In this document: positions 25,697 to 60,002 of the stretch, one piece after another
How the letters are laid out: each line of letters opens with the position of its first letter
Position numbering within the stretch: the stretch's first letter is position 1
Assembly (NCBI GenBank): GCA_963812605.1
Contig: CAWEWF010000001.1
Location: 608,001-672,000 of the forward strand
Origin: an uncultured Verrucomicrobiae bacterium
Lineage (GTDB): Bacteria > Verrucomicrobiota > Verrucomicrobiia > Palsa-1439
Direction of reading: 5' to 3'
DNA length: 64,000 nucleotides
The notes under the pieces: generated by a model
Told to the model about the DNA's origin: nothing
Seen by the model: only the letters and a program-made list of their open reading frames with translations
Database searches by the model: none
Made by a program: the position numbers and the translations under genes

Positions 25697-25826
25697 TAGA
25701 CGCTATTTCCGGGATTGCTCTTCTCCATATATTTCAATCTTCCACATTTTCTTATGGTAAAACAATTGGGCACACTCCTGACGATTTCCTAAGCAATCAT
25801 CGGCTCGCTGGAGTAGGAGGTTGACC

Positions 25827-25867
25827 GGGGGGGGGGGGGGGGGGGGGGGGGGGGGGGGGGGGGGGGG
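25827..25867. repeat. 41-nt poly-G tract opening the C-depleted region
   Basis: Direct count of the G run. Confidence 0.95.
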
Positions 25868-25918
25868 AGGAGAGAGAGTGGGGATTAAAGAGTAAAAAGG
25901 ATCTATGAAGGAGAAAGA

Positions 25919-27472
25919 ATGATGAGTATGATTGCTGTAAGTAATTAGTAAAGATTAAAAGAGTAGTTTGAGTAGATAGGGAAATGTTGAGTTTGAGGTA
26001 AGGAGATTATTTATGTGTGTTTTAAGAAAAAAATGTAGTTGAATAGATGATAGGGTTGGTTTAGTTTATTTAGGAAGGGTTTTATAGGGATGAATAATTT
26101 ATTTATATGTAGATGATTAGATAGTGGATGAGTTGGTAAGTAGTTTGGATAAGAAGGGATTAATGTAGGTAAGGAAATTAAATAGGGTGTTAAACTATGG
26201 AAGTGTAAGGAGTGGTGATAATAGGGAGAACTGAAATAGTTAGAAAGTTACTTTAGGTTAGTGAGTTTATTTAGGAGGTTTTAGGGTAAGTTTAAAGGTA
26301 TTAGTTTGTAGTGGAAATGATATGGATTTTAGGTAAGGATATCACTGTTAACTGTTTTGAATATTGGGAGGTGATGATTAATAAGTTTTTTGAAATGGAA
26401 TTTTTAGGAAGGATAGTTTGTTAATATAATAGTAGTAGTTTTTAGTTAGAAGTGGTTCTGGTGGTGTTGTATAAGTATTAGAAGGTTATTTTGGGTGAAG
26501 AAGTATGTTTTAATTTTTTTTATTAAGAGTTTTTGATTTTTAAGGGCCACAGTTATGGTAAAGTGAAGTAAGTTACAGTAATGTAGAGTAGGTGGATTGT
26601 ATGATTTTTTAATTGAAAAGGGTTAGTGTAGTGGAAAAAATGAGTGAAGAATTGGTTTAGAAAAGAGTGGTGTTTGTTGAAGTGGAAAGATGGAGTTATG
26701 AATTTGAATAGAGGGTGAAGAAGTGGATATTATAATTTTAGGTGGAGATTGAAGAAAGTAAGAGTTTGGAATTTGAAATAGTGAGTGTTGTAGAGTGTTA
26801 ATAGTTTGTTTTGTTTATGAATTGTATGATGGATTTGTTTAGTAATTGAAGTTGATTGTTTATATGATATTGTTTTTGGAGAATTGATTTTAGAAAGTGG
26901 TGTTATTTATTGTGAATTAAGAAAAGTTTTTTAATTATGTTTTTTTATGTAGTAGATTAAATTAGGAATTTGGTGAAGTGATTTTATTTTGTTGAATTGT
27001 AAAAATAAGGATTATTTGTTGTTTTGTATTATATAGTGTGTAATATTTATTAATAGTTTGGGTTGAATTGTATAGTGTAATAGGATATTATATTTTTTTG
27101 TAATTTATAGTTTTAATTGTTATTTAGTTTTTTTGAATTGAGTAAGAAGTAGTGTATAAAGTTATTAAGTATGTTTAGGTGAAGTAGATTTTGATTATAT
27201 TTGTTAAAGTTGATATTAATTTTGTATTTATTGTTGAAGATGATGTTATTGGTTTGTTGTAGAATGTGTATGAGTTGTAAGTGATGTTATTGTGAATTAT
27301 GTAGTATTGTGTGTGATTAATTGGTGTTAAGTTTGAATTTTGTAATTAGAGTTTTAGTGGTGTTATTGTTAGTTGTTTATTTTTTGTTATTGGAATGTGT
27401 TGTTGTATAGGTGAATAGAAAGGGTAAAAGTAAAAAAGTGATGTAAAGTGAGAAGTAGTGATTGTTAAATAA
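25919..27472 (+). other. C-depleted remnant of a MEDS-HisKA_3-HATPase_c sensor kinase gene (boundaries approximate)
   Basis: Restoring C at T/A positions gives GDHLCVF (26002), VEMTWTLG (26311), CQYN (26419), HELHDGL.QQL (26816), IQLFRI.QEAVH.AIKHA (27122), EDD.IGL and IMQYRARLIG. Confidence 0.8.
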
Positions 27473-27512
27473 AGTAATAAATAAATTAATGAATAAAATA
27501 AGTAATACTCCT

Positions 27513-27603
27513 TAGGAAAACTGACTAGGCTGTGGCCAGCACTGTTCTGAGGGCGCAATCAGGTTGGCTGCCAATTGTTGCACCACAAGCGTTGTGTCAC
27601 GAT
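27513..27603 (+). promoter_or_regulatory. Three phased TAGGA-N5-TCCTA-like boxes plus sigma70 promoter of the BON gene
   Basis: Boxes at 27513, 27536 and 27560; TTGTTG 27575, 17 nt, CACGAT 27598. Confidence 0.6.
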
Positions 27604-27653
27604 ACACCCACACAGCAATGCGGAAAATCGACGGAAGAAGAAAGGAAATCAGC

Positions 27654-57333: not shown

Positions 57334-57746
57334 GAGCCGACTCGCAACGCGTTTTTCCAAAGAAGGAATGCCACATCCCTCGGCCGGGAAAGGCGAGGGA
57401 GTGCATCGGCCGACAGCCATGCTTGAAGGCACAATGCTTTTCGAGAAGCCGGGAGGTGAGGTTCCCGGGTTGTTTGGGGGGTGGGGTGCATTGTCGCGGT
57501 CAAGGGTGAGGAGGACTGCCGCCGATGCCACTGCGAGGGGAACAGTCTGGCGCGAGAAGTTGGAGGCGTTGCCGCCATCCGGCTGCCGCAACGTTCCGGA
57601 GTCACCCCGTTGGTACAACCCCTTCCCCAGCACACTACAGCGCGAACCTTCTCGCGCCAGACTGGCTTAATTATTTCGCCACGAGAAACGCCATCTGAAA
57701 ATATATTCATTCGATTACTGATCGCGATCCTCTCTGCGATGTCGCC

Positions 57747-57814
57747 AGTCTGCGACAGAAGCCCGCTTCCGGCAATTGGGCGCAAGACCGATTCTCGGGT
57801 AGGAAAAGCTCCTG
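57747..57814 (-). promoter_or_regulatory. Operator box plus sigma70 promoter with no annotated target
   Basis: TAGGAAAAGCTCCTG (57800); on the minus strand 24 nt to TTGCCG, 17 nt, CAGACT. Confidence 0.6.
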
Positions 57815-58290
57815 CCAATGCGACGCAGAATCTGGTAAACGAAGGTCGGGCTATCCCCATCGCGGCATCGAAACCATCAGCTGTTTACCTCCTACCGGCT
57901 GGCGCCGCGAAGGAATGCGTCTCACAACGGCCTTCCGAAGATCATTGGGAACGCACACTCGCGCCTCTCAGAGGCATTTCTCTCCGTTTTCCTGGAGAAA
58001 TCGCTGACCATTGAGCTTCCTATCAAGCAGTGTTAGCGTATATTCCAGATGCTACGATAGAGTATTATGAGATGCGAATTAATGCGTGGAAAGATCATCA
58101 CGGCTTTGTTGAGCGTGTGCTGTTTCGCCGGCGCCAATGAACTGAATCAAGGGATCCACGCGACGGTTTACCACCATCCACCCTTTTTTGGGAAAACCAT
58201 TGGTCACAAGAGTGGCCTGGGCTAGCGGGAATCAGATTGGCGGTGAGGAGTATGCCTCTGGAGCGCTCCTCGTCAATCGAATTGGCGATT

Positions 58291-59314
58291 ATGAGGTTAA
58301 TCCAAGCTCTTGAGCAGCGATCGCGACAGTTTTTTGTGCTCGCGTGCCTGGGTGTTCTGACGCTGGTCGGATTGGTCGATTACCTGACTGGATTTGAAGT
58401 TTCTTTTTCTGTTTTCTATCTGTTGGGAATCGGATTGGCTGTCTGGTTTGTCAGCAAGGGGTTTGGTTTGTTGCTGTCCATCCTGAGCGTGGCCGTTTGG
58501 CTGGTAGGCGACATTGCGGCTGGCGCACATTATTCCAGTCCATTTATTCCTGTCTGGAACGTAGCAGTTGTAACAGCCTTTTACTTCATCGTAGTCTGGC
58601 TTCTGGCCAGATTGCGTTCGCTTCAGAAGGAACTGGAGAATCGAGTTCAGCAGCGAACAATTGCTCTGACTCAGGAGATGACCGAGCGGGAACGTTTGGA
58701 AAAGGAGATCCTCAATGTCGTGGAACGCGAACAACAGCGGATCGGGCACGATTTGCACGACAGCCTGGGTCAGCATCTTACCGCGGCGGCATTGGCCGGC
58801 AAGGTATTGTCGGATCAACTGGCGGACCAACCGGTTCCTGCGGCGGCGGCCCGTCGGGTCGTGGCGCTTGTCGAAGACGGCATTGCGCTCACGCGCACCC
58901 TGGCACGTGGGCTGACCCCTGTGGAGTTGGCGGCGGATGGGCTAATGGAAGCCTTTGAGGAATTATCAGACAGCACTTCCGAGCGGTTTCGTGTCGAGTG
59001 CCGATTTGAGTGCGACGTGCCGGTGCTGATTCCCGAAGCGGTGACGGCGACACACCTCTACCGCATTGCGCAGGAGGCGATCAACAACGCCATCAAGCAT
59101 GGTCAATCCAAACACATCATCATGCAGCTCGCCAAGACCGAAGCCGGCGCGGTGTTGGAGATACTCGACGACGGCGCGGGCCTGCCAGACCCGTTGCCCG
59201 CGCAACACGGAATGGGGTTGCGGATCATGGCCCATCGCGCCACCATGATCGGCGGGGCTCTCACGGTGCGCCGGGGCCGGGGGCGGCACGGTTGTCACCT
59301 GCACGGTGCCATGA
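58291..59314 (+). CDS. Membrane-bound HisKA_3 sensor kinase (frameshift near 59275)
   Basis: Four TM helices, DLHDSLGQ, HLYRIAQEAINNAIKH, DDGAG; the natural end GTVVTCTVP* lies in an alternate frame. Confidence 0.85.
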
Positions 59315-59967
59315 ACCAGAAACGCGTCTTTCTTGTGGATGATCACCCATTGGTGCGGGAGTGGTTGACGACTCACTTGCGCCAGCAGAGCGATCTCGCC
59401 GTTTGCGGAGAAGCCGAAGATGCGCCGCGTGCGCTCCAAGGAATTCTCGCACTGAAACCTGACGTGGTGATTCTGGACATTTCCATGTCGGGCCGGTCTG
59501 GCATCGACTTGATCAAGGACCTGAAACGGTTGCAGCCGAACGCGGGGGTGATTGTGCTGTCAATGCATGATGAAATGACACACGCGGAACGGGCTCTCCG
59601 CGCCGGTGCCCGCGCCTACATCATGAAGCGGGAGGCGACCGACAAAATCGTCACCGCCATCCGCCAGGTGCTGGCCGGGAAACTATACGTCAGCGAACGC
59701 GTCCAAGCGCGGCTCGCGGAGAAGTTTGTTGGCGCCATGCCACCCGCCAGCCAGTCGCCGGTAAACCTTCTTAGCGACCGCGAGTTGGAAGTGTTCCAGC
59801 TCCTTGGTCAGGGCCGCGACACCAAACAGATCGCGGAGGAATTACAGGTCAGCTTCAAGACCGTTCACGCCTTCTGCGCCCGCATCAAAGAGAAGCTCGG
59901 TCTCACCAAAGCCACCGAACTGCTTCGCGAGGCCGTTCGCTGGGAAGAACAGCGCGAACGCATGTAG
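59311..59967 (+). CDS. NarL/FixJ-family response regulator
   Basis: MNQKRVFLVDDHP, LDISM, LSMH, YIMK, LSDRELEVF; ATGA coupling to the kinase. Confidence 0.9.
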   Translation: MNQKRVFLVDDHPLVREWLTTHLRQQSDLAVCGEAEDAPRALQGILALKPDVVILDISMSGRSGIDLIKDLKRLQPNAGVIVLSMHDEMTHAERALRAGARAYIMKREATDKIVTAIRQVLAGKLYVSERVQARLAEKFVGAMPPASQSPVNLLSDRELEVFQLLGQGRDTKQIAEELQVSFKTVHAFCARIKEKLGLTKATELLREAVRWEEQRERM

Positions 59968-60002
59968 GATTGGTTCGTACAGAAGTCCTGGAACGCGTCC
60001 TA
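59965..60002. promoter_or_regulatory. Tandem operator boxes upstream of the RND operon
   Basis: TAGGATTGGTTCGTA (59965) and CTGGAACGCGTCCTA (59988), 23 nt apart. Confidence 0.55.

Follow-up and report, generated by a model that had tools for sequence, protein, structure and literature searches.

TAGGA-N5-TCCTA boxes as candidate operators of a NarL/FixJ-type stress regulon in soil Verrucomicrobiae

Which kind of protein reads a short palindrome that recurs from promoter to promoter along a bacterial chromosome, and what do the genes behind it have in common? Here we examine these questions in a stretch of 64,000 nucleotides (the window; G000:C1:608001-672000) from an uncultured Verrucomicrobiae bacterium, in which the palindrome TAGGA-N5-TCCTA (the box) is found again and again between genes. 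The source genome, G000, is an assembly of 4.17 Mb in 15 contigs and is ~90% complete; C1, C4, C6, C9, and C14 are contigs of this genome, and other G numbers denote related genomes. Parts of the window are present in four DNA runs, all of one soil-metagenome study; no RNA run was among those listed for window 44001-54000. For one of its regulators, the nearest public relatives come from metagenome-assembled genomes (MAGs) labelled Verrucomicrobiae or Verrucomicrobiia. Our findings support a model, which we consider probable on the grounds of sequence comparison, where the boxes are operators of a NarL/FixJ-family activator serving a regulon of general-stress or dormancy type in soil Verrucomicrobiae.

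Placement of the box and layout of the promoters

An initial annotation of this DNA had listed 24 boxes, and the sequence given for each is present at its coordinate. Scored by matches to the 10 specified bases of TAGGA-N5-TCCTA, the 14 sites considered close reach 8-10/10, those at 42952 and 44808 being perfect, and the 10 sites considered weak reach 4-8/10. Enrichment over a shuffled background, proposed at the time as a check, is borne out: the window contains two perfect boxes against 0.01 expected and 22 boxes at ≤2 mismatches against 8.69 ± 2.81, and in both cases the real count is equalled by 0/100 shuffles. That the first 24 kb are free of boxes is correct at ≤1 mismatch; two 2-mismatch matches do occur there, at 16077 and 18581. 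Genome-wide, 46 boxes were found at ≤1 mismatch, with two clusters among them, ten in the window (40319-59965) and nine on contig C6 (100,954-138,042). The motif had been described as island-wide, a term that suits the cluster in the window, which is real, but is too narrow for a motif that also occupies a second island on C6, dispersed sites, and other genera of the family. The genes behind the dispersed boxes mostly match no Pfam family, and therefore the functional picture gains little from them.

Genes were called with a rough caller of our own, which covers 78.7% of the genome, and intergenic here means outside these calls. By this measure 43 of the 46 boxes are placed outside genes and three fall in the 3.28 Mb of coding DNA; the intergenic count of 39 compares with 8.1 ± 2.5 under a first-order Markov model (maximum 15 in 60 simulations). 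About five of the genome-wide matches are tRNA T-arms. The statement that all sites are intergenic holds to this extent, but box 59965 shares bases with the stop codon of the gene for the hybrid kinase, and box 38391 falls within the longest DUF948 open reading frame (ORF), probably upstream of the true DUF948 start. A word count independent of any motif, comparing the island with other intergenic DNA, places CCTAG (23 vs 3.15), TAGGA/TCCTA (25 vs 5.09), and CTAGGA (15 vs 1.12) at the top, and the half-site spacing TAGG>CCTA is preferred at distance 11 only. The box matrix is symmetric, with short inverted half-sites about one helical turn apart, as expected of a NarL/FixJ operator. Reading the box as an RNA hairpin was set aside, given a stem of only 5 bp and a position upstream of promoters.

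Boxes are commonly arranged in tandem. Around anchor boxes of ≤1 mismatch, a second box (≥6/10) is found at exactly ±23 bp on 21% of anchor sides in G000 and on 30% in same-genus loci, most other offsets reaching ~0-4%; the period of 22-24 bp originally reported agrees with the distances in that list, yet the statistical peak is at exactly 23 bp. A second peak, at 13 bp, stems from overlapping TCCTAGGA. Such overlapping boxes with a shared TCCTAGGA, giving three half-sites in a row, occur at window 54723-54750 and at C6 118091-118110.

Oriented toward the gene, nine window promoters display a box-N24-TTG arrangement, and at looser matching 13 fit one template: the distal box, six bases, the palindrome AATCrG-N8-CCrATT (hereafter the proximal palindrome), a -35 element TTGnnn and, 17-18 bp on, a -10 element TAnnnT. 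The final TT of the proximal palindrome constitutes the first two bases of the weak -35. The distal element, cTAGGA-N5-TCCTAg, is centred near the predicted position -67, often with another box exactly 23 bp further upstream, and the proximal one near -43.5, which places the two centres 23.5 bp apart. Half-site cores are equal (proximal TCGG/CCGA, distal T[A/C]GG/CC[T/G]A), and the proximal spacer is one base longer; the 15 nt abutting the -35, previously taken for a degenerate further box, are instead a conserved palindrome of their own. The promoter geometry, described as fixed, is so in the 13 window promoters, but no TTG stands at N24 after the boxes 42952, 44808, 53886, 54736, and 59965/59988.

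Searched as TCCTA-N6-AATC-N10-CCNA-TTG, with the reversed pattern as control, the composite is present in the genome in five perfect copies and eight at ≤1 mismatch, versus 0 and 1 for the control. A position-weight matrix seeded with nine window promoters retrieved non-seed sites with all elements on C4, C6, C9, and C14 and elsewhere on C1, nearly all of them pointing at a gene start. When 35 composite matches from G000 and its relatives are aligned, positions left free by the pattern show G4 of the left half-site in 34/35, A or C at position 2 in 31/35, and G27 in 32/35. Downstream of TTGnnn, TAnnnT was found at spacers of 16, 17, and 18 bp in 1, 10, and 7 of 34 distinct composite matches, against four occurrences in all over 41 other spacers; several of the matches that lack it carry CAGACT or GAGAAT at the -10 place. 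Because TTGnnn and TAnnnT are separated by 16-18 bp, the box promoters are, as judged from their elements, of sigma70 type (-35 TTGnnn, -10 TAnnnT). These spacing statistics, together with the 13 window promoters, support the earlier proposal that the boxes sit at sigma70 promoters in activator positions. Among the 21 intergenic matches to the proximal pattern in G000 (≤1 mismatch), the best-boxed 12 have a distal box of ≥6/10 at the fixed distance, and in two others the distal box is shifted by one period or one base; therefore, the proximal site is rarely alone.

The segment AATCrG...CCrATTG is nearly invariant and overlaps the -35, and the genome has further sigma factors, so it could be asked whether this segment belongs to a promoter for an alternative sigma factor, of extracytoplasmic function (ECF) type or group 3, rather than to an activator site. 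We hold this to be highly improbable: a true palindrome fits a dimeric binder, not a contact of sigma region 4; the 14 nt from AATC to TTG, start to start, are too short for the -35/-10 distance familiar from ECF promoters; and the 17-18 bp between TTG and TAnnnT accord with sigma factors of group 1/2. We likewise give little credence to the idea that the boxes are mainly repressor operators, or sites of a factor other than a response regulator, their upstream geometry being incidental. Boxes 44808, 59988, and 54736, near start codons or without a TTG at N24, would suit it; against it, the fixed distance to -35 and -10 in the 34 composites puts the elements at ~-67 and -43.5 and leaves the -10 and the start site free, and no other DNA-binding family was seen in the scanned window ORFs, several of which have no Pfam match (the C6 island holds LexA).

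Conservation and candidate regulators

The closest relative, G006, is ~72-80% identical to G000 in aligned pieces; boxes, proximal element, and a -10-region block are preserved in it, the remaining spacers having diverged, and in seven same-genus loci boxes are found at matching places. Across 201 genomes of the class, composites are concentrated in the family of the window (11/26 genomes, several with 2-5 matches), with single matches only outside it. In a set of 41 family genomes, 17 have composites, and the reversed control yielded one match outside G000. Other genera reach counts of five (G052 and G176), four (G152), and two (G088). In G176 the genes behind the composites encode a protein with three BON domains and a Cys-rich one that shares 81% identity with that of window 52583-52801, and in G052 an ACT-like protein, as in the window. 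On comparison of these sequences, the composite recurs before homologous genes in genera of this Verrucomicrobiae family beyond that of the window.

The genome contains 11 matches to the GerE domain, four in the window and two in the C6 island, and the regulator and kinase operons themselves carry boxes. The four window regulators (RR1, RR2, RR3, and a hybrid kinase fused to REC+GerE; table 1) present three kinds of recognition helix, KT[VI]SCY[QR]QNI in RR1/RR2 and one each in RR3 and the hybrid, and therefore not all of them are likely to bind the box. The initial annotation assigned the site to the NarL-type regulators of the island as a whole; REC+GerE and HisKA_3 genes do carry boxes and regulators do adjoin composites in other genera, but the assignment is probably too broad for four proteins with three kinds of helix. 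The helix KT[VI]SCY[RQ]Q is found in 9/41 family genomes, and 9/9 of these have composite matches. Similarly, RR2 orthologues (≥62% identity) occur in G006, G007, G009, G011, G013, G014, and G015, all of which have the motif, and G002, G003, G008, and G016 have neither orthologue nor motif. In G052, G088, and G187 a NarL-type regulator gene directly adjoins a composite promoter. The RR1/RR2 lineage would be the likeliest binder of the box, on helix evidence that is suggestive, not exclusive.

Beyond the genus, the box is not enriched near RR2 homologues, with 8 at ≤1 mismatch in ~793 kb (loci L045-L121), a number close to the genome background, the reversed word reaching 12 across all 80 loci. 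The palindrome AATCRG-N8-CYGATT is preferred at 77 loci that surround RR2 homologues from other phyla (22 vs 3-13 at other spacings), and 7/22 of these lie 59-159 nt downstream of the regulator gene; of the regulators sampled there, those next to the palindrome included, most read KT[IV]ETYRA. The planctomycetal palindrome may be an older form of the proximal palindrome. In Planctomycetota/Phycisphaerae MAG loci (L048:6805, L049:1476, L051:4497, L056:6834, and L066:5761) a near-identical AAAACAGG-N6-CTCTGATTTACAAT is situated ~157 nt behind a regulator gene whose recognition helix is KTIETYRAHIKEKL. Locus L056 has a further palindrome, ATCAGG-N8-CCTGAT, immediately upstream, and the gene that follows encodes another regulator.

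Could two regulators meet at each promoter, an RR1/RR2-type protein on the distal box and another NarL-type protein (e.g. RR3 or a C14 paralogue) on the proximal palindrome, such that two phosphorelays are integrated? The two sites have spacers of unequal length, the proximal palindrome is highly conserved, its N8 form occurs near regulator homologues of Planctomycetota and other phyla that have no TAGGA box, and the island regulators show three different helices. All the same we find this arrangement unlikely, given that the half-site cores are identical, that the proximal site in G000 is so seldom unboxed (12/21 boxed at ≥6/10, two more shifted), and that G088 has composite promoters with only 2 matches to the RR2 DNA-binding domain (E ≤ 1e-6). 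The simplest reading would be that one evolving regulator lineage reads both site types.

Under the model of a single activator lineage, phosphorylated dimers would fill the strong distal site or sites first and then the site abutting the -35, from which they would recruit RNA polymerase carrying a sigma70-type factor, in the manner of BvgA at Pfha and of DosR at the promoters that it controls; cooperative action of the dimers is suggested by the analogy with BvgA. At least four HisKA_3 kinases, with MASE1, PAS, GAF, and CheB/CheR inputs, would feed the regulator. The RR1/RR2 lineage would autoregulate through the composite promoter of the RR2 operon, as the regulator of bvgAS does with its own operon; driven by such a promoter, the circuit would therefore feed back on itself. 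The predicted targets are BON, Dps, CsbD, DUF948, YtxH, DUF892, DUF1328, DUF3309, CBS, and ACT-like proteins and a candidate structured RNA, with Ku/LigD on the second island.

Several points weigh against this model. First, CTAGGA-N5-TCCTAG at ≤1 mismatch is in total less frequent in G000 than the reversed word (9 vs 21); the signal of the box therefore resides in placement, not in raw count, and in our reading the rarity of CTAG-containing words in G000 may explain the low number. A raw count that does not exceed the reversed word is also what would be expected if the repeats were chance, or remnants of dispersed repeats or mobile elements devoid of a regulatory role. To this possibility we attach next to no weight: the placement outside gene calls, the orientation to genes, the fixed geometry, and the orthologous conservation speak against it, the flanks of the boxes are unlike each other, as those of a repeat family would not be, and the composite versus reversed counts, the -10 spacing, and the Markov intergenic excess come close to refuting it. 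Second, related genomes are not independent samples, the whole island being present or missing together, and the intergenic placement depends on our crude gene caller. Third, G176, G052, and G088 have several composite promoters without an SCY-type helix, and the regulators adjoining composites in G052 and G088 read KT[IV]E[TA]HRA. The proximal palindrome, moreover, is strongly conserved, unlike the weak secondary sites of BvgA, and may have a second, distinct binder; centres 23 and 23.5 bp apart correspond to ~2.2 helical turns, so that dimers would not be exactly on the same face; and the boxes off the activator geometry (42952, 44808, 53886, 54736, and 59965/59988) may repress or act otherwise. 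Finally, the genome encodes three sigma factors with region 3, which makes the choice of sigma factor in the model tentative.

Genes served and comparison with known systems

The genes of the window and of the C6 island were assigned to families by Pfam scans, several window ORFs having no match. In the window, box-associated genes encode a BON lipoprotein, DUF948, Dps, DUF202, DUF5666/CusF-like, DUF2934, CsbD, and DUF3309 proteins, as well as a CBS protein, DUF1328, and an OEP/HlyD/AcrB efflux operon; three ACT-like proteins also stand behind window boxes, one of them without a Pfam match. Genes with boxes on the C6 island comprise two of DUF892 and those for YtxH, YflT, BON, DUF948, MscS, Ku, and LigD, and the signalling genes there encode a PAS-HisKA_3 kinase and single receiver proteins. 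We take such families (CsbD, Dps, BON/OsmY-like, YtxH, YflT, DUF892 as YciE/F-like, DUF1328, Ku/LigD) to be typical of general-stress regulons. Several hallmark stress families share one cis element, and the genes served are, in a typing that draws on this general background, of general-stress or dormancy type.

Two side observations concern these genes. A Cys-rich protein, encoded at window 52580-52801 (-) and at L153:2814-3059 and reading WGLCKDCKWWQIEP...GCN.F, belongs to no Pfam family; the versions from two genera share 81% identity, and each of the two genes has a composite promoter before it. The region of C6 at ~95-140 kb (loci L001-L003) also holds Nramp, LexA, an ImuB-DnaE2-like fusion, and SRAP, and a TrwC relaxase is found at 141-144 kb.

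How does this design compare with characterized ones? BvgA binds as head-to-head dimers to inverted heptads with centres every 22 bp, the primary site of Pfha being TAAGAAATTTCCTA; because the last of these sites adjoins an imperfect -35, the promoter depends on the regulator (PMC7250471). The promoters described here are alike in their head-to-head inverted half-sites ending TCCTA, in a strong upstream site to which more dimer sites are added at a constant interval close to two helical turns, as in Pfha and Pptx, and in a most proximal site that abuts or overlaps the poor -35 of a sigma70 promoter. They also differ: the box measures 15 bp end to end (N5), other spacings not being enriched, against the 14 bp of gapless inverted heptads; the period is 23 bp rather than 22; and the proximal palindrome is conserved, with a spacer one base longer, whereas the secondary sites of BvgA are weak and unrecognisable by sequence. 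The targets here are stress-protection genes, those of BvgA virulence genes.

Among solved structures RR2 has no close relative, and no BvgA entry surfaced in the PDB searches; its best match is DevR/DosR (E 5.1e-28 over 196 residues), followed by VraR, NarL, DesR, EvgA, and RcsB (the last with E 1.2e-16). In Mycobacterium tuberculosis, DosR/DevR is a NarL-family regulator served by HisKA_3-type kinases with GAF and PAS domains, and it governs a dormancy/stress regulon through palindromic boxes in tandem, of which the one nearest the promoter overlaps the -35. However, DevR is only a distant relative, in a different phylum and with partly different gene content; its helix reads KTVKNY in place of KTISCY, and the Dev box, a palindrome of 20 bp, has another sequence. 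A resemblance to the half-sites of the enterobacterial RcsAB box had also been noted; the half-sites (TAAGA...TCCTA, as quoted in the initial annotation) are indeed alike, but their spacing is one base longer here, the 14-bp TAAGAATATTCCTA-like site being one base shorter than our box. The RcsAB box requires the auxiliary protein RcsA, for a homologue of which no search was made here. The general stress regulons of sigmaB, RpoS, and EcfG/PhyR include such families as CsbD, Dps, and BON/OsmY-like proteins and are similar in gene content; unlike in these, the common signal here lies upstream of an ordinary -35/-10, pointing to an activator and not to a special sigma factor. Given that spacing, period, and proximal palindrome differ, the promoters are of the same kind as the BvgA and DosR designs, not members of them: on paper, the design works like a BvgA- or DosR-type activator promoter and belongs to neither regulon.

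Literature searches found no description of the motif TAGGA-N5-TCCTA or of a verrucomicrobial stress regulon, and in the literature searched the coordination of stress protection is not described for Verrucomicrobia or their relatives of the Planctomycetes-Verrucomicrobia-Chlamydiae (PVC) group, which are abundant in soil and mostly uncultured. The mechanism itself is conventional and familiar from other bacteria. What the analysis yields is a testable model, with a defined operator, a promoter layout at base-pair level, and a short list of candidate regulators and kinases, and a target list that joins envelope and osmotic protection, iron and DNA protection, and end-joining repair. Tests of this model do not require growth of the organism, and the consensus can be used to annotate regulons in related MAGs. 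A wider scenario can be offered tentatively, and we doubt it more than we trust it: that this soil Verrucomicrobiae family and, in an older form, many PVC bacteria might run their stress/dormancy response through a multi-kinase NarL-type phosphorelay and no dedicated sigma factor, by way of a promoter in two parts (a distal palindrome specific to the lineage and an ancient N8 palindrome fused to the -35), with a regulon that would include non-homologous end-joining repair genes and an undescribed ~280-nt structured RNA.

Individual promoters, a candidate RNA, and other features of the window

The predicted promoters, isolated boxes, regulators, kinases, and candidate RNA are collected in table 1. 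The promoter of the DUF5666/CusF-like genes is divergent from the gene of the MASE1-PAS-HisKA_3 kinase. At the RR2 operon, the perfect box 44808-44822 is 38 nt upstream of the divergent RR1 start, and both boxes, TCGTCCGATTGCG and TGTGTTACA, are kept in G006. The first annotated gene behind the CBS-region promoter, at 53966, begins ~380 nt downstream. In the PAS-GAF-HisKA_3 kinase the ORF stops at 56251 and the HATPase part continues at 56238-56624, reflecting either a frameshift or a sequencing error.

Table 1. Predicted promoters, boxes, regulatory genes, and candidate RNA (window coordinates unless a locus is named)
Feature	Position	Strand	Elements and remarks
Promoter, BON-domain lipoprotein gene (27656-28232)	27513..27603	+	boxes 27513-27527 (8/10), 27536-27550 (4/10, 23 bp on); proximal 27557-27576; -35 TTGTTG 27575-27580; -10 CACGAT 27598-27603
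Promoter, DUF948 gene	38339..38405	-	box 38391-38405; proximal 38365-38384; -35 TTGCGC 38361-38366; -10 TAAACT 38339-38344
Promoter, Dps/ferritin-DUF202 genes	38413..38480	+	weak box 38413-38427 (6/10); proximal 38434-38453; -35 TTGAAG 38452-38457; -10 CACGCT 38475-38480
Promoter, unknown 199-aa gene (39635-40234)	40267..40333	-	box 40319-40333 (9/10); proximal 40293-40312; -35-like TAGATT 40289-40294; -10 TACAAT 40267-40272
MASE1-PAS-PAS-HisKA_3 histidine kinase	40358..42847	-	
Promoter, DUF5666/CusF-like genes	42952..43078	+	perfect box 42952-42966; box 43012-43026; proximal 43033-43052; -35 TTGAAC 43051-43056; -10 TAAAAT 43073-43078
RR1, REC+GerE response regulator	44023..44769	-	recognition helix KTVSCYQQNI
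Promoter, operon of ACT-like protein, CheB-CheR-PAS-HisKA_3 kinase, and RR2	44808..44945	+	perfect box 44808-44822; box 44878-44892; proximal 44899-44918; -35 TTGCGG 44917-44922; -10-like TTACAT 44940-44945
CheB-CheR-PAS-HisKA_3 histidine kinase	45555..49301	+	
RR2, REC+GerE response regulator	49207..49929	+	recognition helix KTISCYRQNI; last gene of 44878-composite operon
Promoter, unknown 158-aa gene (50045-50521)	49954..50020	+	box 49954-49968 (7/10); -35 TTGAAG 49993-49998; -10 TATATT 50015-50020
Promoter, ACT-like gene (50536-51027)	51078..51203	-	boxes 51189-51203, 51156-51170, 51132-51146; proximal 51106-51125; -35 TTGCAT 51102-51107; -10 TAAACT 51078-51083
Promoter, DUF2934 gene	51189..51256	+	box 51189-51203 (9/10); -35-like TGGTAA 51228-51233; -10 TATTCT 51251-51256
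Promoter, CsbD (52068-52286) and DUF3309 (52299-52466) genes	51953..52042	+	boxes 51953-51967, 51975-51989; -35 TTGTCA 52014-52019; -10 TATCCT 52037-52042
Promoter, 157-aa gene (52794-53267) and Cys-rich 73-aa gene (52580-52801)	53330..53397	-	box 53383-53397; proximal 53357-53376; -35 TTGTCG 53353-53358; -10 TACGCT 53330-53335
Promoter upstream of CBS-domain gene region	53490..53580	+	boxes 53490-53504, 53513-53527 (23 bp apart); proximal 53534-53553; -35 TTGCGG 53552-53557; -10 CTTAAT 53575-53580
Box variant	53886..53900		TCGGACATTCTCCGA; without composite geometry
Overlapping and tandem boxes 54723, 54736, 54759	54723..54773	+	upstream of PAS-GAF-HisKA_3 kinase/RR3 operon; no TTG at N24
PAS-GAF-HisKA_3 kinase	54812..56624	+	HATPase part in another frame (56238-56624)
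RR3, REC+GerE response regulator	56458..57333	+	recognition helix KTIASHRENI
Candidate structured non-coding RNA	57390..57668	-	~280 nt; behind 57800 composite promoter; conserved in 6 genomes of the genus
Candidate RNA homologues	L033:12804-13085, L034:15463-15747, L038:17892-18174, L039:10331-10614, L040:8959-9242		
Best-scoring composite promoter in position-weight scan, itself one of the nine matrix seeds	57747..57814	-	box 57800-57814; proximal AATCGGTCTTGCGCCCAATT 57774-57793; -35 TTGCCG 57770-57775; -10 CAGACT 57747-57752
Hybrid HisKA_3 kinase fused to REC+GerE	58237..59967	+	helix KTVHAFCARI
Two boxes 23 bp apart	59965..60002	+	between hybrid kinase-regulator gene and OEP/HlyD/AcrB efflux operon; no TTG at N24

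The stretch 57390-57668 is a candidate new structured RNA, predicted to be transcribed from the 57800 promoter; the evidence, from six related sequences, is suggestive. Its place in four relatives is immediately behind the RR2 gene. The consensus fold (94 pairs, -103.7 kcal/mol) includes a 16-bp closing helix and a GNRA hairpin, and 13 of its pairs vary in a compensatory way; the share of paired cells is 91.7%, compared with 36-47% when partners are slid, and the covariation score was reached by 0/500 shuffles. A protein gene at 57400-57700 was rejected, since substitutions are even over codon positions and G015 has a frameshift, yet four relatives display a Shine-Dalgarno sequence followed by ATG. 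Rfam yielded no match in the window at the gathering score, nor any within 57000-58300 at E ≤ 1. A model of the first domain (R1), searched with strict filters and 83 candidates scored per genome, was found once in each of the six source genomes and nowhere else in the 41 family genomes; 84 further loci gave nothing significant (best E 0.68).

Two very large ORFs, of 1207 and 1603 aa, occupy window 28330-36903 between the BON and DUF948 genes; the first has a weak GT2 match, and the second contains GH94 supersandwich and catalytic domains and a glucoamylase-like domain. No box was noticed before either of them. Further upstream, window 25813-27512 consists of a run of ~45 G followed by 1.65 kb nearly free of C, at 33% GC. 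In one short-read contig (run X1, record 2), 25812 is followed after 13 other letters by 27513, and the C-free stretch is probably an assembly artefact; once it is removed, the BON promoter comes to lie ~60 bp from the weak box 25766.

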